From a virus (taxonomy: Duplodnaviria; Heunggongvirae; Uroviricota; Caudoviricetes): a stretch of 11,868 nt of DNA. Shown here one piece after another: positions 1 to 11,868 of the stretch. Both the position numbers and the translations under genes were made by a program. Below the pieces are notes generated by a model. It was not told the DNA's origin. It searched no databases and worked only from the letters and a program-made list of their open reading frames with translations. Each line of letters begins with the position of its first letter. Position 1 is the first letter of the stretch. The DNA lies in the IMG/VR virus record IMGVR_UViG_2711768053_000004, positions 1-11,868 of that record; one strand, 5' to 3'.

Positions 1-5
1 CAGCT

Positions 6-380
6 TCATTTTTTGACCTGCCCGTCATGCATTATTTCGTAAATTTTCACGCCCAACCGCCCACCGGGAACGACCTGACCGCGCACAATATTGATTTCAT
101 CAAACTGCTCGTCATCGATAAGCAGTCCCGCATGCGTCAGCGCATCCAGGGGTGCTTTCAGAATATTGTCCAGGTCACGACGGCGCTTATCCGGTGGCTC
201 TGCAATAATCTTTATCGCCAGCCTTCCGGACAGATTTAATTTCAGTTGCTGCTGGCGAACAATTAGCGCCACATCACGGCGATAACGCTCACCGGATTTT
301 GATACAAAATATGTGCTGCCACGGCGTCGCCAGTAGGTGTTCACCGTCGGCGGGTAAGGCAAAACAAACTCTATACGCAT
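6..380 (-). CDS. rusA: Holliday junction resolvase RusA (crossover junction endodeoxyribonuclease)
   Basis: 124-aa ORF with ATG start (cat at 378-380). Conserved RusA-like core (PPDKRRRDLDN...DALTHAGLLIDD...GGRLGVKIYEI) recognised from memory of E. coli RusA. Sits at the end of a nin-type block, where lambdoid phages carry rusA just before Q. Confidence 0.88.
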   Translation of the reverse strand: MRIEFVLPYPPTVNTYWRRRGSTYFVSKSGERYRRDVALIVRQQQLKLNLSGRLAIKIIAEPPDKRRRDLDNILKAPLDALTHAGLLIDDEQFDEINIVRGQVVPGGRLGVKIYEIMHDGQVKK

Positions 381-392
381 CAGTAACCTCTT

Positions 393-1442
393 TTACCCGA
401 GCACGCCGGTTGCAAAGGCGTGATCAAGAAAACGAAAAATTAAATCAATCTGAGAACCATATTTTTCTTCAAACGCCAGCGGATCCGCATGAAGCTCGTT
501 GTGATGCTCCCGACACAGCGGTAGCGTGAAAATATCGTGGGATTTTGTTCCTATCCCTCCCTGACCGTGACCAATCAGGTGATGGGGATCGTCGGCTGGC
601 TGACCACAACACGCACACGGCTGTGTCTTTACCCAGCGTGTGTATTTCTCATTTATCCAACGGCGACGTTTAGGTCGCTTCATGAAAGATTCCGGAGACT
701 CCGGATCTACGGCAATGCTGACCACCGTCTTTTCCTGTGGTGCGTTCTGTTGCTGGTGGACGTGAGGCAACGGCGCAAGATTTTTTGTGCGCTGCTTCAG
801 TATGCTGGTGGCGGTCTGCTCTCCCGGTATGATGTCGCTTTCGCGGTACACCGAGCGGATTTTTTCCGCACGTAACCCCAGAGAACGACGCAATACTGTC
901 TCAGGTAATGCGTCCGCCACCTGATTGCAGACCGCCCACCAGGATAATTCAGCCAGCGATAATTCCCGCTCCTGTGTGCCATTCATTGCATGGCGTATGA
1001 CGTCAATCATCCATGCAGACAGGTTTTGGTGAGCAAGTTGCCCGAGTGATTCGGAGGTCTGGTCGCGCAGCTGGTTATCGCAGTGCCAGCACAACACCAT
1101 CGCGCCAGCACCGTAACGATGTATGACGGTTTCGCTGTGATGGTAGTCACCATGAGGCCACTGGCAGGATTTAACATGACGCAGGAGCCAGTCAGACAGT
1201 GCACCAGCGCCGCCGGCAGCACGAATCACCCGCTCATCGCTGAAAAATGGCAGCAGAGATTTATCTTCCGCCAGCGGCTGGCGAGCGGCAGGAACGACCC
1301 CGGACGGCAGCCCGCGCATGCTTTTCGGTTCAGGCTCCACCAGCACACGCCCCTGCATAAACAAAGGCATCGCATCAGGACCGGGCCTGAAAAGTACAAT
1401 CCCCAGACGGTGAGCAATTTCAGGAGTCACTAATACCCGCAC
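393..1442 (-). CDS. DUF968-family phage protein (YdfU-like) with C-terminal Cys/His HNH-like cluster
   Basis: 349-aa ORF. Start codon is GTG (cac at 1440-1442), preceded by GGAGG at 4-5 nt spacing, 1 nt after the stop of the upstream ORF. C-terminus CACCGQPADDPHHLIGHGQGG...CREHHNELH fits DUF968. Same length as Qin YdfU (from memory). Confidence 0.75.
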   Translation of the reverse strand: MRVLVTPEIAHRLGIVLFRPGPDAMPLFMQGRVLVEPEPKSMRGLPSGVVPAARQPLAEDKSLLPFFSDERVIRAAGGAGALSDWLLRHVKSCQWPHGDYHHSETVIHRYGAGAMVLCWHCDNQLRDQTSESLGQLAHQNLSAWMIDVIRHAMNGTQERELSLAELSWWAVCNQVADALPETVLRRSLGLRAEKIRSVYRESDIIPGEQTATSILKQRTKNLAPLPHVHQQQNAPQEKTVVSIAVDPESPESFMKRPKRRRWINEKYTRWVKTQPCACCGQPADDPHHLIGHGQGGIGTKSHDIFTLPLCREHHNELHADPLAFEEKYGSQIDLIFRFLDHAFATGVLG

Positions 1443-1443
1443 G

Positions 1444-1728
1444 TTACCTCCAGATGCGTTGCTGGAATGTGCGGGACGGACGCGGTGGGCGTTCGGAATA
1501 AGGGAGTCTGACGTAGATTATCCAGTGACGATAATCGAGGCTGAGGGCTTTCCTAAACTCATACCCACGTCTGCGGTAGTTATGGATCAGCCATTCGGCC
1601 TGTTCTTCAGTGCAGGGATCGTGCTGATACCAGTCATATTTGAATGCGTGAGAACGCCGCCCGTGCCAGCTGGCAAAGACGGCTGAATTATCAGAATTGT
1701 TAATTTTTTTGTAATGCACCACTACCAT
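1444..1728 (-). CDS. hypothetical phage protein (94 aa, basic, Trp/Tyr/Arg-rich)
   Basis: ORF tightly packed against the downstream DUF968 gene. The ATG at 1728 abuts GAGG with no spacer, so the true start may be the GTG at codon 3 or 4. No family recognised. Confidence 0.45.
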   Translation of the reverse strand: MVVVHYKKINNSDNSAVFASWHGRRSHAFKYDWYQHDPCTEEQAEWLIHNYRRRGYEFRKALSLDYRHWIIYVRLPYSERPPRPSRTFQQRIWR

Positions 1729-1788
1729 CCTCGTAATGGTGCGACAGACGCCAGTTGTTCAGGCTGGCTTTAACTATAGCATTATAAT

Positions 1789-1983
1789 CTAGTCTTTCTT
1801 AATGCTGAAGTGACTGACCGAATCCGCATGCGATTCTTTGGTGATCAGAATAACATCGGGTGGCAATGGCATTACGATAAATTCACCATTCTCAAGAACT
1901 ATTACTTCATAATTACCAGGTACAGAAAGCGCAGCAATTAATTCCTTATCGTTCATAACCAAAATCCCGTGAACTTTAAACAC
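1789..1983 (-). CDS. hypothetical small protein (64 aa; possibly 55 aa from internal ATG at 1956)
   Basis: Short AT-rich ORF with GTG start at 1983 (SD directly adjacent, poor spacing). Could be a spurious frame. Confidence 0.3.
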   Translation of the reverse strand: MFKVHGILVMNDKELIAALSVPGNYEVIVLENGEFIVMPLPPDVILITKESHADSVSHFSIKKD

Positions 1984-2145
1984 CTCCCCTTAAGGGGGCC
2001 ATCCCTCTTCTCCCTGCGCGCTACTTAAGAGCCTCGATTCTAGCCGTGAAGACATACCAATCAACAGCAATAAGCCACCTGAATAACAGAATCAGCCAGC
2101 CACATCAGTACAACTAGATGCATCATGCTCACTGAAAATAAACAA

Positions 2146-2198
2146 CAAAAAACCCGCCGAAGCGCTGAGGGGTCCCCATAAATCAGCGCTAAAGCGGG
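2146..2198 (-). terminator. Rho-independent terminator at the 3' end of the hok transcript
   Basis: On the minus-strand RNA: CCCGC-uuu-AGCGCUGA-[14-nt loop]-UCAGCGCU-ucg-GCGGG followed by UUUUUU. Plus-strand arms at 2153-2157/2194-2198 and 2161-2168/2183-2190, A-run at 2147-2152. Lies about 70 nt downstream of the hok stop. Confidence 0.55.
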
Positions 2199-2267
2199 TT
2201 AAGTGCGGGTGCATTGAGGATACCTGACAACTTAAAGAGTGGCGGGAATTGCTCCCCGCCGTAGCTC

Positions 2268-2420
2268 TTAACGTTTTTCAACTTCGTAGGCTAAATACGC
2301 TGAAAGCTCTGTGTTTCCCTGCCTGATGTGCAGCTCGCATAGCGAACCGCGAACCATCCAGACAAATATCAGAATGGTGATGCAAACCACCACCAGACAA
2401 AACACATAGCTCCTTCGCAT
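2268..2420 (-). CDS. hok: Hok/Gef-family type I toxin (50 aa, single transmembrane helix)
   Basis: Hand translation of the minus strand: MRRSYVFCLVVVCITILIFVWMVRGSLCELHIRQGNTELSAYLAYEVEKR. Carries the Hok signature (hydrophobic N-terminal helix, R-x-SLCE-x-R, AYE near the C-terminus). SD GGGGG lies 5 nt before the ATG. Below the 60-aa cutoff of the supplied ORF track. Confidence 0.8.
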   Translation of the reverse strand: MRRSYVFCLVVVCITILIFVWMVRGSLCELHIRQGNTELSAYLAYEVEKR

Positions 2421-2478
2421 TACAGCCCCCTGTTAGTTGATTTCTTACTGTTAAGAGGCTAATCTTTATGTGTCGCAT
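2278..2478 (-). CDS. mok: Mok-like overlapping reading frame (translational coupler for hok)
   Basis: 66-aa ORF in a different frame that starts 58 nt upstream of hok (ATG at 2476-2478, GAGG about 9 nt upstream) and overlaps nearly all of hok. This is the hok/mok arrangement known from plasmid R1 and chromosomal hok loci. Confidence 0.5.
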   Translation of the reverse strand: MRHIKISLLTVRNQLTGGCNAKELCVLSGGGLHHHSDICLDGSRFAMRAAHQAGKHRAFSVFSLRS

Positions 2479-2540
2479 ACAGAATGCCTCAGATTAATGT
2501 TAAGCGTCTTGCCGGACGCGTAATGTTAACTGGGGCTTTT
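2472..2540 (+). ncRNA. sok: Putative Sok-like antisense RNA (approximate bounds)
   Basis: Inferred from hok/mok architecture. A plus-strand promoter candidate, TTGATT (2437-2442) - 17 bp - TAATCT (2460-2465), would start an antisense transcript across the mok initiation region. A short hairpin GCGTC-ttgccg-GACGC sits at about 2503-2519. The -10 is weak and the 3' end is undefined. Confidence 0.3.
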
Positions 2541-2711
2541 CTCTATCTGCCGTTGGTGTTCATGCCCGAGGCAGATAGCCTCAAGCACCCGCAGCAATTC
2601 TACTTAACTCTCCTTTTCCCGCAAACCGTTTTTATCCCCAGCGGCAAATCGAATACACCACCAGCGCCACCGCCATCGCAATTCCTACCGTTGTGAATGC
2701 TTCAGGCCAGG

Positions 2712-3056
2712 TCATCGTAAAATATCCTCCGCGCTTATCAGTCCGTTCCGCTCCAGATAACTCATCGCCTTATCCGGTAATTTGCAGTCTGGCTTCGCTT
2801 TCCTCAGTTGCCAGGTTAACTGCTTTACCAGCATGGTTAACTCATCGACCAGACGCTGATATCCCACTGGTTTGTATTCATGCAATTTACCGGCTGGCTC
2901 TGCTGCCAGCGATACCAGTGCGATTTCCAGAACAGCAATATCCATCTTATATGTGCGGATGATGTCATGGTCGATTGTGCCCGGTATGCACAGTCTCTGT
3001 GCTTCAATAGTCTCCTCTGCGTGAGCTATTAACTGCTCTCTGGTAAAAGTCGTCAT
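2712..3056 (-). CDS. hypothetical phage protein (114 aa)
   Basis: ATG at 3054-3056 overlaps the TGA of the upstream HNH gene (ATGA overlap), indicating translational coupling. No family recognised. Confidence 0.6.
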
Positions 3057-3418
3057 GCCGTAGCCCCTTCTTGATATTTTTCAAACCAGAACACAACCGG
3101 ATCAGATTTCATTTCAACCAATCCCATACGAACCAGCGCTTTGCCTTTTCCGGACGCAAGGAATTCACGACGACCATCACTGATAATTCGCCGATAATCT
3201 TCCAGGCTACTGCAATGCTTGTGCAGGTTGCATGGGTGGCATGCCGGAACCATGTTGGATATATCGTCACGCTCCTGGTGAAGCATATTTCCAGCAAAAC
3301 GAATGACCGGTTTTACATGGTCTGCATGCCACTTTTCGCCAAGTTCGCAGCCGCAATAAGCACAGCGACCGCCGAACTTCATGCGCAGCTCTGCACGTTG
3401 TTTTTTCGTCAGTGCCAT
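3053..3418 (-). CDS. HNH endonuclease (121 aa)
   Basis: Motifs CAYCGC...WHADHVKP...N...CHPCNLHKH (CxxC / HxDH / N / H / CxxC). The ORF track starts at 3508, but the internal ATG at 3416-3418 has a good SD (AAGGAAA) and sits 2 nt after the stop of the upstream small ORF, so it is the preferred start. Confidence 0.75.
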
Positions 3419-3419
3419 A

Positions 3420-3638
3420 TCAGCTTTCCTTATACGGATTAATTTTATTGTGCAGTGTGTTGAACGACGCCCACACCACGTCGTTATACAATTCAATAAC
3501 TGGCTCAATTATTTTCCCGATTGTCCAGACAAAAATTAGCGGGGATGTCGGTATCATCAACACGATAAACAGAATGAGAAACAGAAATTCTGTTGTTCTA
3601 CTCTTTCGCGGATATTTTTTTCTAAATAATGTGACCAT
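3420..3638 (-). CDS. small predicted membrane protein (72 aa, one hydrophobic helix)
   Basis: ATG start at 3636-3638. Hydrophobic segment FLFLILFIVLMIPTSPLIFVWTIG. Ends 2 nt before the HNH start. Preceded by the GC hairpin at 3644-3659. Confidence 0.45.
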   Translation of the reverse strand: MVTLFRKKYPRKSRTTEFLFLILFIVLMIPTSPLIFVWTIGKIIEPVIELYNDVVWASFNTLHNKINPYKES

Positions 3639-3732
3639 TCATTACCGCCCTTTCGGGCGGCCTCCTGATGATTTGAGGGTGAAGGAATCCCTCCGGTTAA
3701 GGATTAAATTTTATTTACAACACTAAATTTAA

Positions 3733-4257
3733 TTATTCAGGCGCGCGAATCTGTTCCGCACAATGCAATAATGCTTCTGTCACTTCCTTAAGCGTTACGG
3801 TATCGGCATCATCCAGTCCTGCAACTTTTGCGTGCCTGACAAACGCCGCGCGAAGCTCGTTAAACGCCACCGCCCGTACATCAGCCAGGAAAGCATCTGT
3901 AGCCTGGGTTTGCGGCATACCTCCGTCTGTTGCGCAGATATACGCATCAGATATTTCATCCTGCTCGCCATTAAACACATAGCAACTCTGTACGATAAAT
4001 TTATTCAGCCGCGCATTCTCCGCCGCCAGCGTCATGCGTTCTTTCTCAAGTCGGAAAATTTCTGTCACGTATTTGGCGTTTTCACCCCCCTTGATTAACT
4101 CGTTAATTCGTTTGCTTTTAATTTCCAGTTCATCCAGCAGTTCCAGCACAACCTGAGGTGTGGCTTTCATACGAAATGCCAGCAATTTTTGTGGTGTGGC
4201 TGCTATTTTTATTGCTTCTGCCGCCCCACGCAGTGCCTGATAGTCAATCTTGCTCAC
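3733..4257 (-). CDS. hypothetical phage protein (174 aa), possibly Ead/Ea22-like
   Basis: GTG start at 4257 with strong SD (AAGGAG, 7-nt spacing). Central coiled-coil-like region. The family name is a weak guess from the N-terminal motif MSKIDYQALRGAAEA. Confidence 0.6.
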   Translation of the reverse strand: MSKIDYQALRGAAEAIKIAATPQKLLAFRMKATPQVVLELLDELEIKSKRINELIKGGENAKYVTEIFRLEKERMTLAAENARLNKFIVQSCYVFNGEQDEISDAYICATDGGMPQTQATDAFLADVRAVAFNELRAAFVRHAKVAGLDDADTVTLKEVTEALLHCAEQIRAPE

Positions 4258-4510
4258 TGGTTGTCTCCTTTTTCCATGTTTTCAGACTTTCACCACAGAA
4301 CGGGCAAAATGAGACTCGAATAGGTGATTTAGAAAATTCACCGGAACGCAACATCACCAAATCAGGGGCGCGAGTTAAATTCTCATTCCAGATTTTGTAT
4401 ATCAGCAGACCTTTTCGCATCGTGTATTCAGCATCATGCTCAAGGGACTTTGCCAGTGCTGCACATGGTTCTATCTTGTTGCCCTTAACCTGGCATTTTG
4501 ATTCACTCAC
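4244..4510 (-). CDS. small Cys-rich (putative zinc-ribbon) protein, 88 aa
   Basis: GTG start at 4508-4510 overlaps the TGA of the upstream gene (GTGA), with AGGAGG 7 nt upstream. Cys pairs C-x9-C near the N-terminus and CPFC near the C-terminus. Confidence 0.5.
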   Translation of the reverse strand: MSESKCQVKGNKIEPCAALAKSLEHDAEYTMRKGLLIYKIWNENLTRAPDLVMLRSGEFSKSPIRVSFCPFCGESLKTWKKETTSEQD

Positions 4511-4902
4511 CGCACCACCTCCTGAAAATTACCCTGATAAAACGCCAGTACGCGCTGCATAGCTTCGCTCTTCCGGCACTCGCTACAGATTATGTTCTGA
4601 CGCCTGTCGTAGCGGCGTATTTCTCCGTCTGGTAACTTTCGAATCAGTGTCAGGTCGGTTCTTTTCTCCGGTGTCTTACGCCATACGCGATACGCCTGCT
4701 CTGATGCAAAAACACCGTATTTACCGGACATGTATAAATCGCCACAAGCCAGCACATCCACAAGGCAGCGTCGAACCGAATGCCAGCCTGCTCCCGTCGC
4801 TCTCTCCAGCTGTGACATCGTCATGCGTCCATTTTTGCGTACCAATCCGATAATTCGTGCCTTCAGCTCTTCCCGCTGTTCGAGAGAAAAAGGTTTCGCC
4901 AT
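4507..4902 (-). CDS. hypothetical phage protein (131 aa)
   Basis: The ORF track starts at GTG 4929, but the in-frame codons AGGAGG-attt-ATG place a canonical SD before the ATG at 4900-4902 (MAKPFSLEQREEL...), which is the preferred start. No family recognised. Confidence 0.6.
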   Translation of the reverse strand: MAKPFSLEQREELKARIIGLVRKNGRMTMSQLERATGAGWHSVRRCLVDVLACGDLYMSGKYGVFASEQAYRVWRKTPEKRTDLTLIRKLPDGEIRRYDRRQNIICSECRKSEAMQRVLAFYQGNFQEVVR

Positions 4903-4932
4903 AAATCCTCCTGAAAAAATCACCTTCACAAT

Positions 4933-5598
4933 TCATACAAAACCAGCCGCTTTCCGGCGTTCATACTCCTGTTTCAGCAACTCAATTGGTGTTGGCCCCG
5001 ACGGGCGTTTTGGTGCTGCCAGTTGCCGCCGTACGGCCGGAACGCTGAAGCCGTCACCAACATGCTTTGCCCATTTCGCCAGTTGCCGTTCTGCAAGTCG
5101 TTTTAACTCACCTTCGGTCATCTGGCGCTCAATCCCCTTTGAACGCATCTCGAGGCAAATGTGATACAGCACAGGCTGAGACCACGGGTATTTATCGCTT
5201 CCGTCGTATCGCCAGGACTCGTTGCGCCAGCGGCGGTACTCCTCCATCACAGCATCCACCGTCAGACCGAATGGATTGGCCCCGCTTTCCGAAATCAGCG
5301 CCACAAACTCAGCCAGGTCCGGAGGCCATGTTTCACCTGCCCTGCAACGGTCCATGCACTGGCGGCAGACCTGCCGGATTTGCTGCTCAGTCATCGCGCC
5401 AATCTGTGCAATCCAGAGCTTCGAAGGTGCGGCCCCGTTCTTCTGGGTCCAGCGGTTCGAATAAACCTCCCCCATGAGTTCCCACAGCTTCCAGGCAGTT
5501 TCCGTCGTTGATAAATCCGTTTTCACGTTCCCACCGCTCACGTGCTGCCCGAATTTCCTGAACTGCCCGTGATGCGGTGCCACCTGGTGCTGCTGCAT
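4933..5598 (-). CDS. Replication protein P-like (lambda P family helicase loader)
   Basis: 221 aa. ATG at 5596-5598 with SD GGGGG at 6-nt spacing. The pattern ...[10 protein letters not shown]...YPW...[14 protein letters not shown]... parallels lambda P (...PGQFVAW...YPW...LTDAELRRKAADEL...), recalled from memory. Its first 212 nt overlap the 3' end of the O-like ORF. Confidence 0.7.
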
Positions 5599-6427
5599 GG
5601 TTTACCCCCTTGCTGACTGGTTTAGCCTGCGCCCTGACGTGATTTACGTGACGGGCGAATTTCTGCTCCCACTGAACCTGCGTGAAAACTTTACCCTCCG
5701 CTGCCCAGTAGTCCCGGAAGGCGGCAAGTTCAGCTGGTGTAAATTCCGGCTCCGGCAGAGCCACTCCCCACAGAGCCGCCCGTCGTCGAAAATCCGGCGA
5801 CGGATGCCAGCCATCGGTCATCGGAAATTTCCCGATGGGTTCGCTCAGGCCTTCCAGGTAATCAGGTTCCGCTGTTTGCAACGGCACGCCATTTGCCTCA
5901 CTGGTCGGAGCACTCTCGCGCACGCGCGCGTTATGTGTGGGGTTTAATTCTTTATCTGTATCTTTATCTGTCGTGACTCGTCGTGACATGTCGTGACATA
6001 TGCGTGACTCGTCGCGCCCCCCCTCATTCTGTTTTCGTAATTTTTCCCTCTCGCGCTGCGCTCTCTTGCGCTCTGCCGGGGATTTCGCGGTTTGTGAAAC
6101 GTTGCCATTGTCCTCTTTCAGTACCTGGCGTTTTTCCCATCCACTGATCAAATCTCCATCAAGTACCCGCCCCTGCATTGCCTGTAAAATTGAATCAATT
6201 ACTTCTTCCGTCACATCAAGCGCACTTGCTAAATCTTCCGCCGTGACATCAATGTGACCACGTAGTGACACGCCGTGACATGTCGTGACATTTCGTGACG
6301 CACTCACCAGAAGGTGGATATACACAGCCATCACTGTTGCGATTGGCTGTCCTGACACCCTGGAAATTGTTCGCCACTTAGGATCGTTTGGCATGTCATG
6401 CCATAATCTGAGCCAGGCGTTAGCCAT
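5387..6427 (-). CDS. Replication initiator, O-like (YdaU-like), containing the ori iterons
   Basis: Long ORF directly upstream of the P-like gene with two iteron arrays inside the coding sequence. The ORF track start (6433) is GTG; the ATG at 6425-6427 has a better SD. The 3' boundary is uncertain because of the long overlap with the P-like gene. Confidence 0.65.
5972..6008. repeat. Iteron array 1: 4 x CGTGAC at about 10-bp periodicity
   Basis: CGTGAC at 5972, 5982, 5992 and 6003, flanked at 5950-5970 by an AT-rich direct repeat (TTTATCTGT x2). Confidence 0.6.
6243..6299. repeat. Iteron array 2: 6 x GTGAC at 10-11-bp periodicity
   Basis: GTGAC at 6243, 6254, 6265, 6275, 6285 and 6295, all in the same orientation, inside the N-terminal coding part of the O-like gene. 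Confidence 0.6.
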
Positions 6428-6498
6428 ACTCACCTCTTCTGATACCGAATCTTTTTACTCACGAATTGCCGGAAGCGATCCGGTATGAATATTGTCAG

Positions 6499-6924
6499 TC
6501 AATGCACAACCACAATATTTCCCGCCGGGCCACCACGATTCATCTGGTTGAAACCAGCGATCGCCACTGCGACAAAATCATCAGCGTCTCTCACCAGTCG
6601 TTCCCGCGTCTCCACCAGTTCCCGAAAATAGGCTGAACTGTGGCTGCGCATTCGGGCCACCAGCAGAGGTGGCATTGCTTTTTCGATCGCTGGTAACAAC
6701 GCCTGAATTTTTTTAACCGCATCAGGGGTGTCTTTATCCAGCCAACGGAAAATTTTCTGGGTATTACGAGCCAGCGCTTCCGGATGCCTGTCGTCATATA
6801 GCTCCGGGAACGTCATACCCAGCTCAAAATAAGCCCGGGTTATTTCAGCTGCCGGAACTTTTTCACCGTCCGGATGCGCCCAGGCATTCATCGCCATACG
6901 GATGTGTTCATGCTTGATTTTCAT
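6499..6924 (-). CDS. YdaT-like protein (cII-position gene of Rac-type immunity regions)
   Basis: 141 aa, ATG start. Begins MKIKHEHI and ends VVH, as I recall for Rac YdaT (140 aa). Its start overlaps the end of the Cro-like gene by 17 nt. Confidence 0.7.
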   Translation of the reverse strand: MKIKHEHIRMAMNAWAHPDGEKVPAAEITRAYFELGMTFPELYDDRHPEALARNTQKIFRWLDKDTPDAVKKIQALLPAIEKAMPPLLVARMRSHSSAYFRELVETRERLVRDADDFVAVAIAGFNQMNRGGPAGNIVVVH

Positions 6925-7192
6925 GAATCAACCCTATTTTTTTGGATCTGATAACTTCTTCTGGAATCCCACTAACTGGAGTAGGGTGCAAATCAGGCCG
7001 GAGATCATGCGGAGTAACAATCCATTCCCCAAGCTCACAAAGCCTAATAACCCTCTCACTAGGAACCCTGTTCCTGATAATCCAATTAAAAATGGATTGA
7101 GGCGATTTGAAACCAAACATGCGACTTACAGCAGAGGGAGAACCAATAGCCATAACTGCCTTTTCTGTAATGTTTTTGTATGTAGTGCTCAT
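6908..7192 (-). CDS. Cro-like HTH regulator (YdaS family)
   Basis: Resembles the YdaS/Cro HTH region (..SIFNWIIRNRVPSERVIRLCELGEWIVTPHDLRPDL..). Divergent from the repressor gene. Preferred start is the ATG at 7190-7192 (GGAG, 6-nt spacing); the ORF-track ATG at 7204 has no SD. Confidence 0.75.
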   Translation of the reverse strand: MSTTYKNITEKAVMAIGSPSAVSRMFGFKSPQSIFNWIIRNRVPSERVIRLCELGEWIVTPHDLRPDLHPTPVSGIPEEVIRSKKIGLIHENQA

Positions 7193-7219
7193 CGTTAGCT
7201 CCATTTCAAGAACGAGAGA

Positions 7220-7307
7220 ATAATACTACATAAAGTAGAATTTGCAACTACACAAAATAGAAATGACGAATCAAGGCAACTGCTTTAATCTTCTACATAT
7301 GGTAGAA
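7220..7307. promoter_or_regulatory. Immunity-region divergent promoter/operator segment
   Basis: Minus-strand PR-like promoter: -35 TTGCAA (7242-7247), 16-bp spacer, -10 TATTAT (revcomp of 7220-7225). Operator-like palindromes CTAC-N5-GTAG at 7226-7238 (inside that spacer) and TTCTAC-atatg-GTAGAA at 7291-7307 (centred on the repressor ATG candidate at 7299). Confidence 0.5.
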
Positions 7308-7751
7308 AACGTACATAAACATCACGCATTCGCAACAAGACTTAAGTCAGAAATGGATAGAAAAAACAAATCCATCAAAGACTTAAGCTTATCTACGGGC
7401 GTCACATACGAAATGGCGCGACGCTACACCCTAGGTACAGCTAAACCCCGCGACGAAAAACTCGAACGAATAGCAGAATTTCTGGGAGTTGAACCTGCAT
7501 GGCTGGAATACGGTCAGCCAACAGAGAAAGGAATTGAACCAGCAGAAGATTCATTTGTAACACAAAGATCTGGTGCCAATAGCAATGGCGAATTTACTGA
7601 GTTAAGTGAAGATGAAAAGCGGCTGATACGAACGTTTCGGGAGTTTCCGCCAGTTGAAGCCAGGAATATGCTTCTGGCTTTTGAGATGAGACTCAAGAAA
7701 CTTTACGATTTCTACGAGAAATACGCCAGCACCCCACCACCTTCTGAGTGA
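7299..7751 (+). CDS. Prophage repressor, DicA/RacR-like (XRE-family HTH)
   Basis: N-terminal HTH (ATRLKSEMDRKNKSIKDLSLSTGVTYEMARRYTLGTAKPRDEKLERIAEFLGVEPAWLEYG) plus a C-terminal helical domain. Divergent from the Cro-like gene and followed by a strong terminator. Start is ambiguous: TTG 7242 (ORF track), ATG 7263 or ATG 7299. None has an SD, so the mRNA may be leaderless. Confidence 0.75.
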   Translation: MVENVHKHHAFATRLKSEMDRKNKSIKDLSLSTGVTYEMARRYTLGTAKPRDEKLERIAEFLGVEPAWLEYGQPTEKGIEPAEDSFVTQRSGANSNGEFTELSEDEKRLIRTFREFPPVEARNMLLAFEMRLKKLYDFYEKYASTPPPSE

Positions 7752-7767
7752 CTTTATCTGTTAACAC

Positions 7768-7792
7768 CCCCCGGCATTGCCGGGTTTTTTTT
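7768..7792 (+). terminator. Rho-independent terminator after the repressor gene
   Basis: CCCGGC-att-GCCGGG (7770-7784) followed by eight T (7785-7792), 18 nt after the repressor stop. Confidence 0.8.
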
Positions 7793-7846
7793 GCCTTAAA
7801 AAACAACTTTATGTAGACAAAAACACAACAAACTCTACTTTTAGTG

Positions 7847-7874
7847 TTGACACATCTACTTCAAGTAGTATCAT
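7847..7874 (+). promoter_or_regulatory. pL-like early promoter with embedded operator
   Basis: -35 TTGACA (7847-7852), 16-bp spacer, -10 TATCAT (7869-7874). The spacer contains the perfect palindrome CTACTT-c-AAGTAG (7856-7868), which matches the CTAC-N5-GTAG sites in the cro/repressor intergenic region. Confidence 0.55.
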
Positions 7875-7947
7875 TAAGTCATCAAAGCACAACGGTGCGA
7901 CAGGTCTTAGTTCCGCTACCCCGGCGTTAAGGGGAAATGAGGTCAAC

Positions 7948-8103
7948 ATGGATACTATCGATCTTGGCAACAACGAATCTCTGGTATACGGCGTGTTCCC
8001 AAACCAGGACGGTACGTTCACCGCGATGACGTATACCAAAAGCAAAACGTTTAAAACCGAATCTGGCGCGCGTCGCTGGCTGGAAAGAAATTCAGGTGAG
8101 TGA
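7948..8103 (+). CDS. small early protein, 51 aa (YdfA-like by size and position)
   Basis: The ORF track gives 7777..8103, but that N-terminal extension crosses the terminator and promoter. The internal ATG at 7948 has GAGG at 5-nt spacing. The 51-aa size and first position in the operon match Qin ydfA (from memory). Confidence 0.6.
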   Translation: MDTIDLGNNESLVYGVFPNQDGTFTAMTYTKSKTFKTESGARRWLERNSGE

Positions 8104-8104
8104 T

Positions 8105-8233
8105 ATGGATTTCGACGCAATCATGGAAAAGGCTTACGAAGAATACTTCGAAGGCCTTGCCGAAGGCGAAGAAGCTCTCAGCTTCAGTGAGTTTAAACAG
8201 GCGCTTTCCAGCTCGGCAAAATCTAACGGCTGA
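8105..8233 (+). CDS. small acidic protein, 42 aa (YdfB-like by size and position)
   Basis: Hand-translated: MDFDAIMEKAYEEYFEGLAEGEEALSFSEFKQALSSSAKSNG. ATG at 8105, 1 nt after the previous stop, with SD AGGTGAG. Below the ORF-track cutoff. Confidence 0.5.
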   Translation: MDFDAIMEKAYEEYFEGLAEGEEALSFSEFKQALSSSAKSNG

Positions 8234-8263
8234 TAAGCGAAGCGGCACCGCGAGGAATTCAGT

Positions 8264-8674
8264 ATGCAGAAACGAGAACCCGTCATCATCGCGCCAGACT
8301 ATACCGATGATGAAATTTACGAATGGATGTGCGGGAAGATACGCGCCATTAATGACATGAAGCAGGCTGCTGACTACAAAGAGCGCCTCTCTAAAGAACT
8401 GGCATCAGCGGAGCAAGATATTACCACTCTGGCAAAAAGAGCGGCATTAAACGTTTCGCGAGTGATTGCAAACTACCGACCGATGAGGTTGACGATGAAT
8501 GAAACAGAACTTAAACACGTTATTGCCTTGCTTCTGGAAGATGCAAAACGCTTACATGAACTGGAACCCAATGCAGGCACAGAGGCCCGCATTTGGTTAG
8601 CAAAAAAATGCCTGGATAGTAAAAGTTTTCAGAAAGAAATAACAATCAGTTTTGAGAATTCGCCTCATCTATGA
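8264..8674 (+). CDS. hypothetical early protein (136 aa)
   Basis: ATG at 8264 with GAGGA at about 9-nt spacing. No family recognised. Confidence 0.6.
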   Translation: MQKREPVIIAPDYTDDEIYEWMCGKIRAINDMKQAADYKERLSKELASAEQDITTLAKRAALNVSRVIANYRPMRLTMNETELKHVIALLLEDAKRLHELEPNAGTEARIWLAKKCLDSKSFQKEITISFENSPHL

Positions 8675-8876
8675 ATTGTTGAATCAGGTTTGCTAATTCA
8701 GTGGCATGTTTATCACCTGTGCTTTTTAAAGCATCTGTTACACAATCTGAGCGAAGTTCTGGCGGAAGTCTTGTTGCCATCAAAGCTATCGCGAGCTTAA
8801 TGGCTCTTAATTCGGCATTTATTCCATCATGGGATAAATCATTATTAATAGTGGTTTTTATTGTGTTCAAAATCAC
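8646..8876 (-). CDS. hypothetical small protein (74-76 aa), convergent to the plus-strand operon
   Basis: AT-rich ORF. On the minus strand AGGAGG is followed by GTG with no spacer and by TTG at 6-nt spacing, so a TTG start at 8868-8870 is plausible. Its 3' end overlaps the 136-aa gene by 29 nt. Could be spurious. Confidence 0.3.
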   Translation of the reverse strand: MILNTIKTTINNDLSHDGINAELRAIKLAIALMATRLPPELRSDCVTDALKSTGDKHATELANLIQQFIDEANSQN

Positions 8877-9189
8877 CCTCCTGAGGGTTGTTAATTAAGG
8901 AGTTCTCCACGGGTGAGGCGGAGTGCGTGCGCCGGACACGGGTGAGCATCCGGCACTGGCAGTTTACTGAAAGGATATATCCCTGAAAAGTCAGGGCATA
9001 ACACGGAAGCGCACAGCGAAGTCATTCCTCCCTTTGTTGTGTACCACTGACATCTTCGTCTGTGCGCTTCCGGTTGTGGCACTCCGCGAAATGGCGCGGC
9101 GGTAAGTATGGCGGGGTTATCCTTACCCCATTAGTGGCACCGGGTTGTCAGGTTGACCATACGCCTGAGTGACAACCCCGCTACAACAA

Positions 9190-9256
9190 CCCATGGTGGT
9201 TACCTTTTGGCGGGTATCCGTTTTTTTTGTTTTCCCTTGTGATACCCGCCCTTTTT
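9190..9256 (+). ncRNA. dicF: DicF-like small RNA (approximate 5' end) with intrinsic terminator
   Basis: Sequence UGGUGGUUACCUUUUGGCGGGUAUC...GAUACCCGCCCUUUUU resembles E. coli DicF (UGGUGACGUUUGGCGGUAUC...CCGCCC, from memory). Terminator stem GGCGGGTATC (9209-9218) / GATACCCGCC (9241-9250) followed by a T-run (9252-9256). Lies immediately upstream of dicB, as in the Qin dicB operon. Confidence 0.55.
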
Positions 9257-9439
9257 AAAGTGAATTTTGTGATGCGGTGAATGCGGCTCAGCGCACGCGG
9301 AACAGTTAAAAAGGCCAGTTGACTTCCGTATTGGTTCTTATGGGTGGGTTCTCTGTATCCGGCGTTAATTGTTAACTGGTTAACGTCACCTGGAGGCACC
9401 AGGCACCGTATCACAAAATTCATTGTTGAGGACGCGATA

Positions 9440-9628
9440 ATGGAAACGTTATTACCAAACGTTAATACGTCTGAAGGTTGTTTTGAAATTGGTGTCAAAA
9501 TCAGTAACCCTGCATTTACTGAAGATGCCATTAATAAGAGAAAACACGAACGGGAGTTATTAAATAAAATATGCATTGTTTCAATGCTGGCCCGTTTACG
9601 TCTGATGCAAAAAGGATACTGGCAATGA
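9440..9628 (+). CDS. dicB: Cell division inhibitor DicB (62 aa)
   Basis: Translation METLLPNVNTSEGCFEIGVKISNPAFTEDAINKRKHERELLNKICIVSMLARLRLMQKGYWQ is near-identical to my recollection of E. coli K-12 DicB. ATG at 9440 with GAGGA about 8 nt upstream. The 5' extension in the ORF track (9344) is not supported. Confidence 0.8.
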   Translation: METLLPNVNTSEGCFEIGVKISNPAFTEDAINKRKHERELLNKICIVSMLARLRLMQKGYWQ

Positions 9629-9828
9629 ATACTGCTATTGCCCTCACTCTGACTGTTTTTCTTAATACTGGCGAGCCTGTTGACATGGTTATTGACATTT
9701 ACGGTTCAATGAAAGAATGCATGGCTGCCGCAGCAGAACAAAAAATTCCCGGTAACTGCTATCCGGTCGATAAAGTTATTCACATGGACAATAACGAAAT
9801 CCCGGCAGGACTTAAAACAGCACCGTAA
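9625..9828 (+). CDS. YdfD-like small protein (67 aa, hydrophobic N-terminus; putative lysis/toxic protein)
   Basis: ATG at 9625-9627 overlaps the dicB TGA (ATGA), with AAGGA at 7-nt spacing. Sequence begins MNTAIALTLTVFLNTGEPVD. Position after dicB matches Qin ydfD. Confidence 0.6.
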   Translation: MNTAIALTLTVFLNTGEPVDMVIDIYGSMKECMAAAAEQKIPGNCYPVDKVIHMDNNEIPAGLKTAP

Positions 9829-9908
9829 TTAATATCCGGTTTCATTTTTATATGCCAGCAATGGCAGGGATTTGTTCACCCTTAAATCTGTAATGAGGTT
9901 AAAACAAA

Positions 9909-11868
9909 ATGAGTAAAGTCTTTATTTGCGCCGCCATTCCGGACGAACAGGCAATAAAGGAAGAAGGTGCAGTCGCTGTAGCCACTGCCATTGAAGCCGG
10001 CGACGAACGCCGCGCCCGTGCCAAATTTACCTGGCAATTCCTGGAGCAATATCCGGCTGCTCAGGACTGCGCTTATAAATTTCTTGTCTGCGAGGATAAA
10101 CCCGGCATGCCCCGCCCTGCCATCGACTCCTGGGATACCGAATATATGCTGGAAAACCGCTGGGATGAGGAAGGCGCTTCCTTTGTTCCGGTCGAACCAG
10201 AATCCGATCCGATGAACGTCAATTTTGACAAGCTGTCCCTTGAAGTACAGAACGCGGTCCTGGTTAAGTTCGGTACATGTGAAAACATCACCGTTGATAT
10301 GGTGATTAGTGCACAGGAATTGTTGCAGGAGGACATGGCAACATTCGACGGGCATATCGTTGAGGCATTGATGAAAATGCCTGAAGTTAACGTCATGTAT
10401 TCAGAACTAAAGCTGCTCGCCATCGGGTGGGTTAAACATAAATGTAAGCCGGGTGCAAAATGGCCTGAGATCCAGACAGAATTACGCACCTGGAAAAAAC
10501 GTCGCGAAGCCGAACGCAAAGAAACCGGGAAATACACGTCTGTTGTTGATCTTGCCCGCGCCAGAGTCAACCGGCAGCACACTGAAAACTCAACAGGAAA
10601 AATCCCCCCTGTCACTGCCGCCATTCGTCGCGAATACAAGCAGACATGGAAAACACTGGATGAAGAACTGGCCTACGCTTTCTGGCCTGGTGATATTGAT
10701 GCCGGAAACATTGACGGCAGCATCCATCGCTGGGCAAAAAATGAAGTTATCGACAAAGATCGCGAAGACTGGAAGCGTATTTCCGCATCAATGCGCAAAC
10801 AACCTGATGCCGTTCGCTACGACCGTCAGACTATTTTTGGCCTTGTCCGTGAGCGTCCGATCGACATTCACAAAGATCCCGTGGCGCTGAACAAATACAT
10901 CACTGAATACCTGGCGACAAAGGGCGTGTTTGAGGATGAAGAAACAGACCAGAACACTGCTGATATTCTCCAGCCGTCAGCAGCACAAACTGATGCAGTG
11001 GAAACTGAAGTATCTGATACCAAAAAAAATGAAAGCGCGCTGGAAACTGAACCATCTGTAGAGCGTGAGGGGCCGTTCTACTTCCTCTTCACCGATAAGG
11101 ATGGCGAAAAATATGGTCGTGCAAACAAACTTTCTGGTCTGAATAAGGCGCTGGCTGCAGGGGCTACTGAAATCACGAAAGAAGAATATTTTGCCCGTAA
11201 AAACGGCACGTACTCAGGTTCACAACAAAATACTGGTGCCTCTGACACGACCGCACAACCAGAGCCGGTAAAAGTTACCGCTGACGAAGTAAACAAAATT
11301 ATGCAGGCAGCCAATATCAGCCAGCCTGACGCCGATAAGTTGCTTGCTGCCTCTCGCGGAGAATTTGTTGCAGGGATTAGCGACCCGAATGATCCGAAAT
11401 GGGTGAAGGGGATTGAAACCCGCGATTCTGTGTACCAGAACCAGCAAGAAACGGAACAGAACGACCAGAAAGCGGAACAAAACAGCCAAAATGCGTTACA
11501 AAACGAGCCAGAAACGAAACAACCTGAGCCAGTAGCGCAACAGGAACCGGAAAAAGTCTGCACCGCCTGCGGTCAGAGCGGTGGCGGCAACTGCCCTGAT
11601 TGTGGCGCGGTGATGGGCGACGCAACATACCAGGAAACATTCGATGAAGAGAATCAGGTTGAAGTTCAGGAAAATGATCCGAAGGAAATGGAAGGCGCTG
11701 AACATCCACACAAGGAGAATGCTGGCAGCGCTCAGGACCACGCCAGCGATAATGAAACTGGCGAGACGGCAGATCCCTTAATTGCGGTGAACGGTCATCA
11801 CGTTATCACATCCACCAGCAGAGTGTGGTACCACCTGATGATCGACATTGAAACAATGGGAACCAACA
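9909..11868 (+). CDS. recE: Exodeoxyribonuclease VIII, RecE-like (N-terminal ~653 codons; ORF continues past window end)
   Basis: Hand translation shows no stop from ATG 9909 to the window end. Residues DKLLAASRGEFVAGISDPNDPKWVKGIETRD...CTACGQSGGGNCPDCGAVMGDATYQETFDEE...EGAEHPHKENAGS closely match the linker/zinc-ribbon segment of E. coli RecE as I recall it. The C-terminal nuclease domain would lie beyond the window. Confidence 0.85.
   Translation, partial: MSKVFICAAIPDEQAIKEEGAVAVATAIEAGDERRARAKFTWQFLEQYPAAQDCAYKFLVCEDKPGMPRPAIDSWDTEYMLENRWDEEGASFVPVEPESDPMNVNFDKLSLEVQNAVLVKFGTCENITVDMVISAQELLQEDMATFDGHIVEALMKMPEVNVMYSELKLLAIGWVKHKCKPGAKWPEIQTELRTWKKRREAERKETGKYTSVVDLARARVNRQHTENSTGKIPPVTAAIRREYKQTWKTLDEELAYAFWPGDIDAGNIDGSIHRWAKNEVIDKDREDWKRISASMRKQPDAVRYDRQTIFGLVRERPIDIHKDPVALNKYITEYLATKGVFEDEETDQNTADILQPSAAQTDAVETEVSDTKKNESALETEPSVEREGPFYFLFTDKDGEKYGRANKLSGLNKALAAGATEITKEEYFARKNGTYSGSQQNTGASDTTAQPEPVKVTADEVNKIMQAANISQPDADKLLAASRGEFVAGISDPNDPKWVKGIETRDSVYQNQQETEQNDQKAEQNSQNALQNEPETKQPEPVAQQEPEKVCTACGQSGGGNCPDCGAVMGDATYQETFDEENQVEVQENDPKEMEGAEHPHKENAGSAQDHASDNETGETADPLIAVNGHHVITSTSRVWYHLMIDIETMGTN

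Follow-up and report, generated by a model that had tools for sequence, protein, structure and literature searches.

A DicF-like small RNA allele with replaced pairing segments at the dicF slot of a lambdoid prophage

Introduction

The DNA stretch analyzed in this study (the window; 11,868 nt, positions 1 to 11,868 of the IMG/VR record IMGVR_UViG_2711768053_000004) corresponds to the early region of an E. coli-type lambdoid prophage, and at around 9193–9256 it carries what is, by position and residual sequence, a divergent allele and true homologue of dicF. All four segments with which K-12 DicF pairs with its validated targets (ftsZ, xylR, pykA, and manX) were replaced in this allele. From the comparisons below, we consider it moderately probable that the window RNA is a functional, processed, terminator-ended sRNA with a changed target set.

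Among prophage sRNAs, DicF is a textbook case, with the targets ftsZ, xylR, pykA, and manX, as well as pchA in EHEC. To our knowledge, DicF biology rests on a single sequence.

Organization of the operon

The locus was arranged as a dicBF-type operon, with ydfA (DUF1391), the sRNA slot, dicB (PF05358), and ydfD (DUF1482) in this order, and with a repressor gene and a promoter-like site upstream (Table 1). The repressor was only 18% identical to DicA, and the promoter region (within 7752–7960) was unlike that of K-12; since both differ, the operon body is, by this comparison, joined to a different immunity region. The final ~45 nt before the start codon of the ydfA-like gene were conserved. The promoter-like site at 7847–7874 is likely the equivalent of dicBp, and the scan found no further promoter-like site between it and the small RNA.

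The first-pass annotation had placed a DicF-like sRNA directly upstream of dicB at 9190–9628, a range comprising the predicted RNA, the spacer with the dicB leader, and dicB itself. The RNA does lie upstream of dicB, but the two are separated by the 183-nt spacer. The annotation had also described the RNA, dicB, and the YdfD-like gene as a three-part cassette under repressor control; the order of the three parts held, while the control by a repressor is a reading of the architecture, with a repressor as distant from DicA as stated above.

Table 1. Features of the dicBF-type operon and of other loci in the window
Feature	Position	Strand	Basis and remarks
Hok-like hydrophobic 50-aa ORF	2268–2420	−	Just downstream of the sok match
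sok match of a hok/sok-type toxin–antitoxin locus	2418–2590	−	Rfam sok 93.7 bits (gathering score 59)
HTH_3 repressor-like gene, DicA position	7242–7751	+	Pfam HTH_3 34.2 bits; different immunity type
Terminator-like hairpin	7770–7784	+	Sequence scan
Strong promoter-like site, TTGACA / 16-nt spacer / TATCAT	7847–7874	+	11/12 matches; upstream of the ydfA-like gene
ydfA-like gene, DUF1391	7951–8103	+	Pfam 99.5 bits
ydfB-like ORF, then 136-aa ORF	Between ydfA-like gene and 8880	+	
76-aa ORF	8646–8876	−	Overlaps the end of the 136-aa + strand ORF; no Pfam match
Untranslated leader, upstream ORFs to small RNA, ~310 nt	8880–9192	+	Processing scaffold
Long hairpin, homologous to the K-12 RNase III-site hairpin	8997–9078	+	Alignment, consensus fold
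Predicted mature small RNA, class B allele of the dicF slot	~9193–9256	+	16-nt 5′ tail AUGGUGGUUACCUUUU, hairpin, CUUUUU tail
Terminator-type hairpin, perfect 10-bp stem GGCGGGUAUC / GAUACCCGCC, 22-nt U/C-rich loop	9209–9250	+	5′ arm GGCGGGTATC, 9209–9218; loop CGTTTTTTTTGTTTTCCCTTGT (CGUUUUUUUUGUUUUCCCUUGU), 9219–9240; 3′ arm GATACCCGCC, 9241–9250
T5 tract, would form the 3′ U tail	9252–9256	+	Same as K-12
Spacer and dicB leader, 183 nt	9257–9439	+	K-12-like except for an inserted patch at ~9299–9340
dicB, cell-division inhibitor, 62 aa	9440–9628	+	Pfam DicB 130.7 bits; 89% identity to K-12 DicB
YdfD-like gene (DUF1482), 67 aa	9625–9828	+	71.8 bits; 70% identity to K-12 YdfD; overlaps the dicB stop codon

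Leader and predicted processing

K-12 DicF is cut from the operon transcript, with RNase III producing the 5′ end of a ~190-nt species and RNase E the 53-nt form, while its 3′ end is the terminator (bioRxiv 10.1101/2023.04.14.536235; PMC9438474). The K-12 RNase III cut aligned to ~9067 of the window, within the homologous long hairpin, and the corresponding precursor would span ~9067 to 9251–9256. Compared with K-12, this hairpin contained two compensatory pairs (G-C to A-U and C-G to U-A). Across the leader, 3 of the 90 predicted pairs showed double changes, a count from a region that is too conserved to be informative on covariation. The leader was very highly conserved across loci, except for two swapped patches at hairpin tips. 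Since there was no promoter-like site beside the RNA and the RNase III hairpin was conserved, the comparison was counted in favor of processing from the operon transcript.

At the spacer and dicB leader, the Rfam family STnc100 (RF02076) matched 9249–9472 over the full model length with 34.1 bits, which is below its gathering score of 47. The same place in K-12 Qin (2433–2642 of locus L001) scored 34.4 bits, also below the gathering score. These matches suggest that the dicB leader may be distantly homologous to this Salmonella prophage sRNA family, which a 2026 preprint links to PasD (bioRxiv 10.64898/2026.05.13.724894).

The predicted small RNA and its relation to K-12 DicF

A DicF-like hairpin with a long U-rich loop, as noticed in the first-pass annotation, was recovered in the form of a GC-rich 10-bp stem whose 3′ arm is followed by C and TTTTT (9251–9256), a predicted Rho-independent terminator of the DicF type. 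The 5′ end was placed at 9193 after the example of K-12 DicF, whose 5′ end is made by RNase E. The resulting 64-nt stretch (9193–9256) folded at −19.7 kcal/mol, compared with −10.6 ± 2.5 kcal/mol for dinucleotide shuffles (n = 200), none of which folded as well (z = −3.7). By sequence, a U-rich stretch ahead of the hairpin and the U tail together form an intact, putative Hfq-type module. A T8 run lies in the loop at 9221–9228, close after GGCGGGUAUCCG, and a simple scan calls a small terminator-like hairpin there (9209–9222); the longest T-run might cause some early termination inside the RNA.

The flanks of the slot were ~95% identical to K-12 Qin, and the dicF segment between them was largely different. 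The near-identity broke off ~30 nt before the hairpin and returned with the final bases of the 3′ arm, in agreement with the earlier remark that the sequence differs from K-12 DicF. Within a dicB operon, the stretch thus has the conserved ydfC-dicF leader on one side and the dicF-dicB spacer on the other, and its similarity to DicF was still detectable, since the body matched K-12 DicF at 41 of 64 positions (z = 4.8), a value equalled by 1 of 1000 shuffles. On these two grounds, the description of the RNA as DicF-like was sustained.

The likeness to K-12 Qin DicF (RF00039) extends over the slot, the operon, the near-identical flanks, and the upstream RNase III hairpin. The two RNAs also share the GGCGG/CCGCC hairpin base, the last five stem pairs, the U5 tail, a similar 5′ arm GGCGG(G)UAUC (GGCGGUAUCAG in K-12 and GGCGGGUAUCCG in the window), and a loop that starts with GUUUU and ends with GUGA. 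The loop core GUUUUCCCUUGUGA is the counterpart of the K-12 loop GUUUUACUCCGUGA, and 10 of the 14 bases match; all four differences fall in ACUCC, the anti-Shine–Dalgarno of K-12 DicF, which reads CCCUU in the window. The window loop is longer than the K-12 loop through its U-run. In place of the K-12 3′ arm CUGCUCUGCCGCC, the part that binds ftsZ, pykA, and manX, the window RNA has GAUACCCGCC, which is perfectly complementary to the RNA's own 5′ arm, and where K-12 has the xylR-pairing 5′ seed GGUGACGUUU, the window RNA has GGUGGUUACCUUUU.

The Rfam DicF model (RF00039) gave no match at its gathering score (48 bits) in the window, and none at E ≤ 10 either, whether in 851 nt or in the 75 nt around the hairpin, where Rfam returned chance matches only, whereas a comparable search with K-12 dicF, the positive control, reached 76.7 bits. 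The window RNA is therefore outside the DicF family as Rfam defines it. The first-pass annotation had named two findings that would together speak against it, the lack of a significant hit to the DicF covariance model and the lack of complementarity to the ftsZ leader, and the former is what was obtained.

The stretch was also considered as a small protein gene, because a 21-codon ORF (MVVTFWRVSVFFVFPCDTRPF) runs across the hairpin from an ATG at 9193 to a TAA at 9256–9258, and because this ATG was conserved in all non-canonical alleles. Such a reading is highly improbable. The start codon lies just 16 nt before a stable hairpin and has no Shine–Dalgarno sequence ahead of it (CAACAACCCATG), and the frame after the T-run was not kept, with runs of T4 to T8 leading to products of 14, 20, 15, 28, and 21 aa with different C-termini. 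The small-ORF reading was rejected since its reading frame was not conserved among the alleles.

Pairing with known DicF targets

In K-12, the 3′ region of DicF acts on ftsZ, pykA, and manX, and the 5′ end acts on xylR (PMC5069750; PMC5861419). The variant DicF23, which carries one point mutation in the 3′ region, is impaired in the regulation of both ftsZ and pykA (PMC5069750).

Duplexes were predicted for K-12 DicF and for the window allele, both against the K-12 target sequences, and were ~40–70% weaker for the window allele across the four targets. At ftsZ −31..−1, K-12 DicF formed 21 bp with −27.9 kcal/mol, compared with 15 bp and −17.1 kcal/mol for the window allele. The respective energies were −15.9 (with the perfect 10-mer GGUGACGUUU) and −8.4 kcal/mol at xylR, −22.5 and −7.3 kcal/mol at pykA, and −32.7 and −13.5 kcal/mol at the manX coding-region site. 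While the K-12 control found the published sites, the pairing of a 5′ seed with xylR and of the 3′ region with pykA and manX that characterizes DicF was not recovered for the window allele. A home-made accessibility-corrected score, the sum of hybridization and opening energies, was −14.5 at xylR, −11.9 at pykA, and −8.5 at ftsZ for K-12 DicF at the published sites, and −5.7, −5.7, and −4.0, respectively, for the window allele. The suggestion in the first-pass annotation that changes in the pairing region could alter the target range thus gained support, and since every K-12 pairing segment was replaced, the target set is expected to differ.

The pairing with ftsZ deserves closer attention, because the window RNA could be a functionally equivalent DicF that still represses ftsZ translation through the residual complementarity of its loop, with UUUUCC pairing with the GGAGAG Shine–Dalgarno region, UUGUG with CACAA, and CGCC with GGCG. 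The best duplex lies in the canonical ftsZ register (−29..−5; the 15 bp given above), the loop core alone forms 11 bp with −9.8 kcal/mol, and the linkage to dicB, another division inhibitor, is kept. However, the duplex is 39% weaker in energy than the canonical one, contains more G-U pairs, and has larger internal loops, the accessibility-corrected score at the ftsZ Shine–Dalgarno site is only ~−4 kcal/mol, and 87–89% of the shuffles of the window RNA paired with ftsZ at least as well as the real sequence, in a test of low power in which the shuffles of K-12 DicF also did so in 17–20% of cases (p ~.17–.20). In K-12, moreover, small changes in this part of the RNA, as in DicF9 and DicF23, are sufficient to abolish or reduce ftsZ repression (PMC5069750). 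We therefore regard an equivalent function as improbable. Repression of ftsZ by the window allele would at best be much weaker, and the ftsZ repression that the first-pass annotation had carried over from DicF should not be assumed, with the segment for ftsZ −29..−7 replaced and ACUCC changed to CCCUU.

Whole-sRNA duplexes with the ftsZ leader did not set even the validated K-12 pairing apart from shuffles, and their energies are uninformative since long G+C-rich duplexes form by chance. At ftsZ, the accessibility-corrected score likewise failed to distinguish K-12 DicF from its shuffles. In a scan of the dcw cluster (19.5 kb), even K-12 DicF placed the ftsZ initiation region no higher than 167–250 among 2432 windows. 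The best site for the loop of the window RNA fell within ftsA, 362 nt ahead of the start of ftsZ, with a score equal to the chance-best of 2432 windows. The residual complementarity to the ftsZ Shine–Dalgarno region is weaker, rich in G-U pairs, and indistinguishable from chance. Within the window itself, no cis targets of the loop and tail were found beyond chance.

One pairing of the tail was stronger than that of K-12 DicF at the same site. The segment 9199–9208 (GUUACCUUUU) formed 10 bp, three of them G-U, with K-12 manX −13..−2 in the Shine–Dalgarno region (−11.8 kcal/mol; −7.5 with accessibility). Since the tail resembles a generic anti-Shine–Dalgarno sequence, this pairing may be non-specific.

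Allele classes at the dicF slot

A scan of viral contigs with the two flanks only found 120 loci, comprising 107 with a canonical-type hairpin, six of class C, four of class B, two of class D, and one with a short hairpin. In this flank-only, unbiased sample, 13 of the 120 dicB-operon copies (~one in nine) carried a non-canonical RNA. A second scan aimed at non-canonical alleles yielded 79 loci with many more combinations of tail and hairpin. The window carries an allele of class B, one of no fewer than four classes with a common scaffold and terminator base but a different loop and 5′ tail. None of the class B, C, and D loci gave an Rfam DicF match at the gathering score.

Class C (GGCGGCAUCAG...CUGAUGUCCGCC) has the flanks, terminator base, and U tail in common with class B, and in subclass C1 the 5′ tail AUGUUGAUUACCUUUU is also that of class B, while class D, found for example in E. 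albertii, has a C-like hairpin behind a canonical tail. Every class had the GGCGG/CCGCC base and the U tail; the inner stems differed while their complementarity stayed. The non-canonical tails have CCAUGU ... (A)CCUUU in common, with a variable insert between. Relative to class B, the inner stem and loop of classes C and D are different, as are most of the 5′ tails, so that the classes would present different putative seeds. Tail types and hairpin types reassorted, as in loci with a class B tail and a class C hairpin, and on this sequence evidence tail and hairpin behave as separately exchangeable modules.

Individual loci showed further arrangements. A canonical DicF 5′ tail was joined to a class C-like hairpin in L009, L104, and L198 (E. 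albertii), and to a very short hairpin in L122, and ~110 nt of the upstream leader were absent from L193 and L201.

Among 5426 complete E. coli genomes, the canonical slot was found at 7595 places in 4079 genomes, and the window-type (class B) slot at 261 places in 205 genomes (~4%). No exact copy of the window allele was present among these 261 places; the nearest allele, from E. coli RM8082 (NZ_CP043825.1), has T7 in the loop in place of the T8 of the window. When one genome per species was scanned, the slot occurred in E. coli, Shigella flexneri, and Escherichia albertii only, the other hits being chance matches in unrelated genomes.

A full-text literature search returned no description of non-canonical dicF alleles, although a 1994 survey by Faubladier and Bouche, reportedly of dicF-hybridising sequences, might show such variants. 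A further comparison is with PasA/PasC and PasD/STnc100, which are likewise prophage-borne, terminator-ended sRNA families with variant seeds, and of which Escherichia and Shigella carry several copies that vary in sequence, mostly outside a conserved fold (bioRxiv 10.64898/2026.05.13.724894). Unlike the dicF slot, which is in the early dicB operon, the Pas genes are located in late regions near Q, RusA, and holin/lysozyme genes, and DicF and dicB are not mentioned in the Pas paper (bioRxiv 10.64898/2026.05.13.724894).

Constraint within class B

The diversity of class B was analyzed in 29 distinct flank haplotypes from 33 loci. None of the ten columns of the 5′ stem arm was variable, and the 3′ arm and U tail together had one variable column. 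The mean minor-allele frequency was 0.022 in the 5′ tail, which contains the class B segment UUACCUUUU, and 0.055 in the loop, compared with 0.21 in the upstream leader, 0.062 in the spacer, and 0.16 in dicB. Variation in the loop consisted mainly of the T-run length (T4 to T8) and of CCCUUGU versus CCCCGU, whereas UUUCCC was present in nearly all sequences. Judging by the variable T-run, part of the loop may be only weakly constrained. Selection on the RNA as a whole would account for how little the class B body varies, as would a single module that spread recently through recombination, without purifying selection.

The pattern within the hairpin bears on a simpler explanation, according to which the stretch is what remains of a degenerated dicF and works solely as a terminator, ending the upstream transcript and limiting read-through into the toxic dicB, with a loop and tail that have no role in trans. 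The invariant stem and U tail, with the variation located in the loop and tail, agree with this explanation, as does the T-run of T4 to T8. The perfect complementarity of the 3′ arm to the 5′ arm would be expected once the arm was freed from ftsZ pairing, and no target emerged from the dcw scan, the cis scan of the window, or the duplexes with known targets. Nevertheless, the tail and the loop core UUUUCCC were kept in 29 haplotypes despite far more variable flanks, the tail and hairpin types reassort as discrete conserved modules without decay, and the cassette was tandemly duplicated in one phage. The 22-nt loop is, in addition, unusually long for a pure terminator hairpin. On balance, a terminator without any further role appears unlikely, albeit with an appreciable chance of being correct.

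The tandem duplication of the class B cassette, which lies upstream of kil in one deposited phage genome, was counted in favor of the reading that we prefer, a functional sRNA with a changed target set. The duplicated copies are near-identical and occupy 2900–3090 of PP818812.1 (L208), directly after a DicA-like repressor gene, without ydfABC, and with kil in place of dicB. The sequence is deposited as ‘Actinobacillus phage vB_Apl-pPE4’, and the stated host is odd given its closeness to E. coli prophage DNA.

Proposed mechanism and implications

For a functional sRNA at this slot, the following course can be proposed by analogy with K-12. A long operon transcript starting from the promoter-like site at 7847–7874 would yield the RNA, and would end at the GGCGGGUAUC/GAUACCCGCC hairpin and its U tail. 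RNase III would cut in the conserved hairpin at 8997–9078, and trimming by RNase E would leave an RNA of ~55–65 nt, while read-through of the weak T5 terminator would allow expression of dicB and the ydfD-like gene. The RNA would presumably act in trans through Hfq-type base pairing, with the accessible CU-rich loop GUUUUCCCUUGUGA, the U-rich 5′ tail GGUUACCUUUU, or both as candidate pairing surfaces.

A broader proposal, which we put forward tentatively and which may well prove wrong, is that the dicF slot is a seed-swapping cassette of Escherichia/Shigella lambdoid prophages, in which a fixed scaffold and terminator base would be combined with at least four loop/tail modules (canonical, B, C, D, and hybrids), each having its own targets in the host or in rival phages. 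If this were true, class B would be an undescribed regulator with its own targets in ~4% of E. coli genomes that is missed by current annotation.

Since about one in nine slots is non-canonical and Rfam recognizes none of these, genome surveys that score dicF as present or absent mislabel such loci. They also overlook a series of natural alleles that exchange their pairing surfaces on an unchanged processing scaffold. This series would suit the study of target change in horizontally acquired sRNAs, and would equally suit the question of whether prophages tune division inhibition differently.

Additional features of the window

Two further loci were observed on the opposite strand (Table 1). 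Transcription of the 76-aa ORF would run counter to the sRNA operon, and a hypothetical protein is annotated on the same strand at the matching position in RM8082. The sok match and the Hok-like ORF next to it form a hok/sok-type locus, and RM8082 has hokD annotated at the corresponding place.
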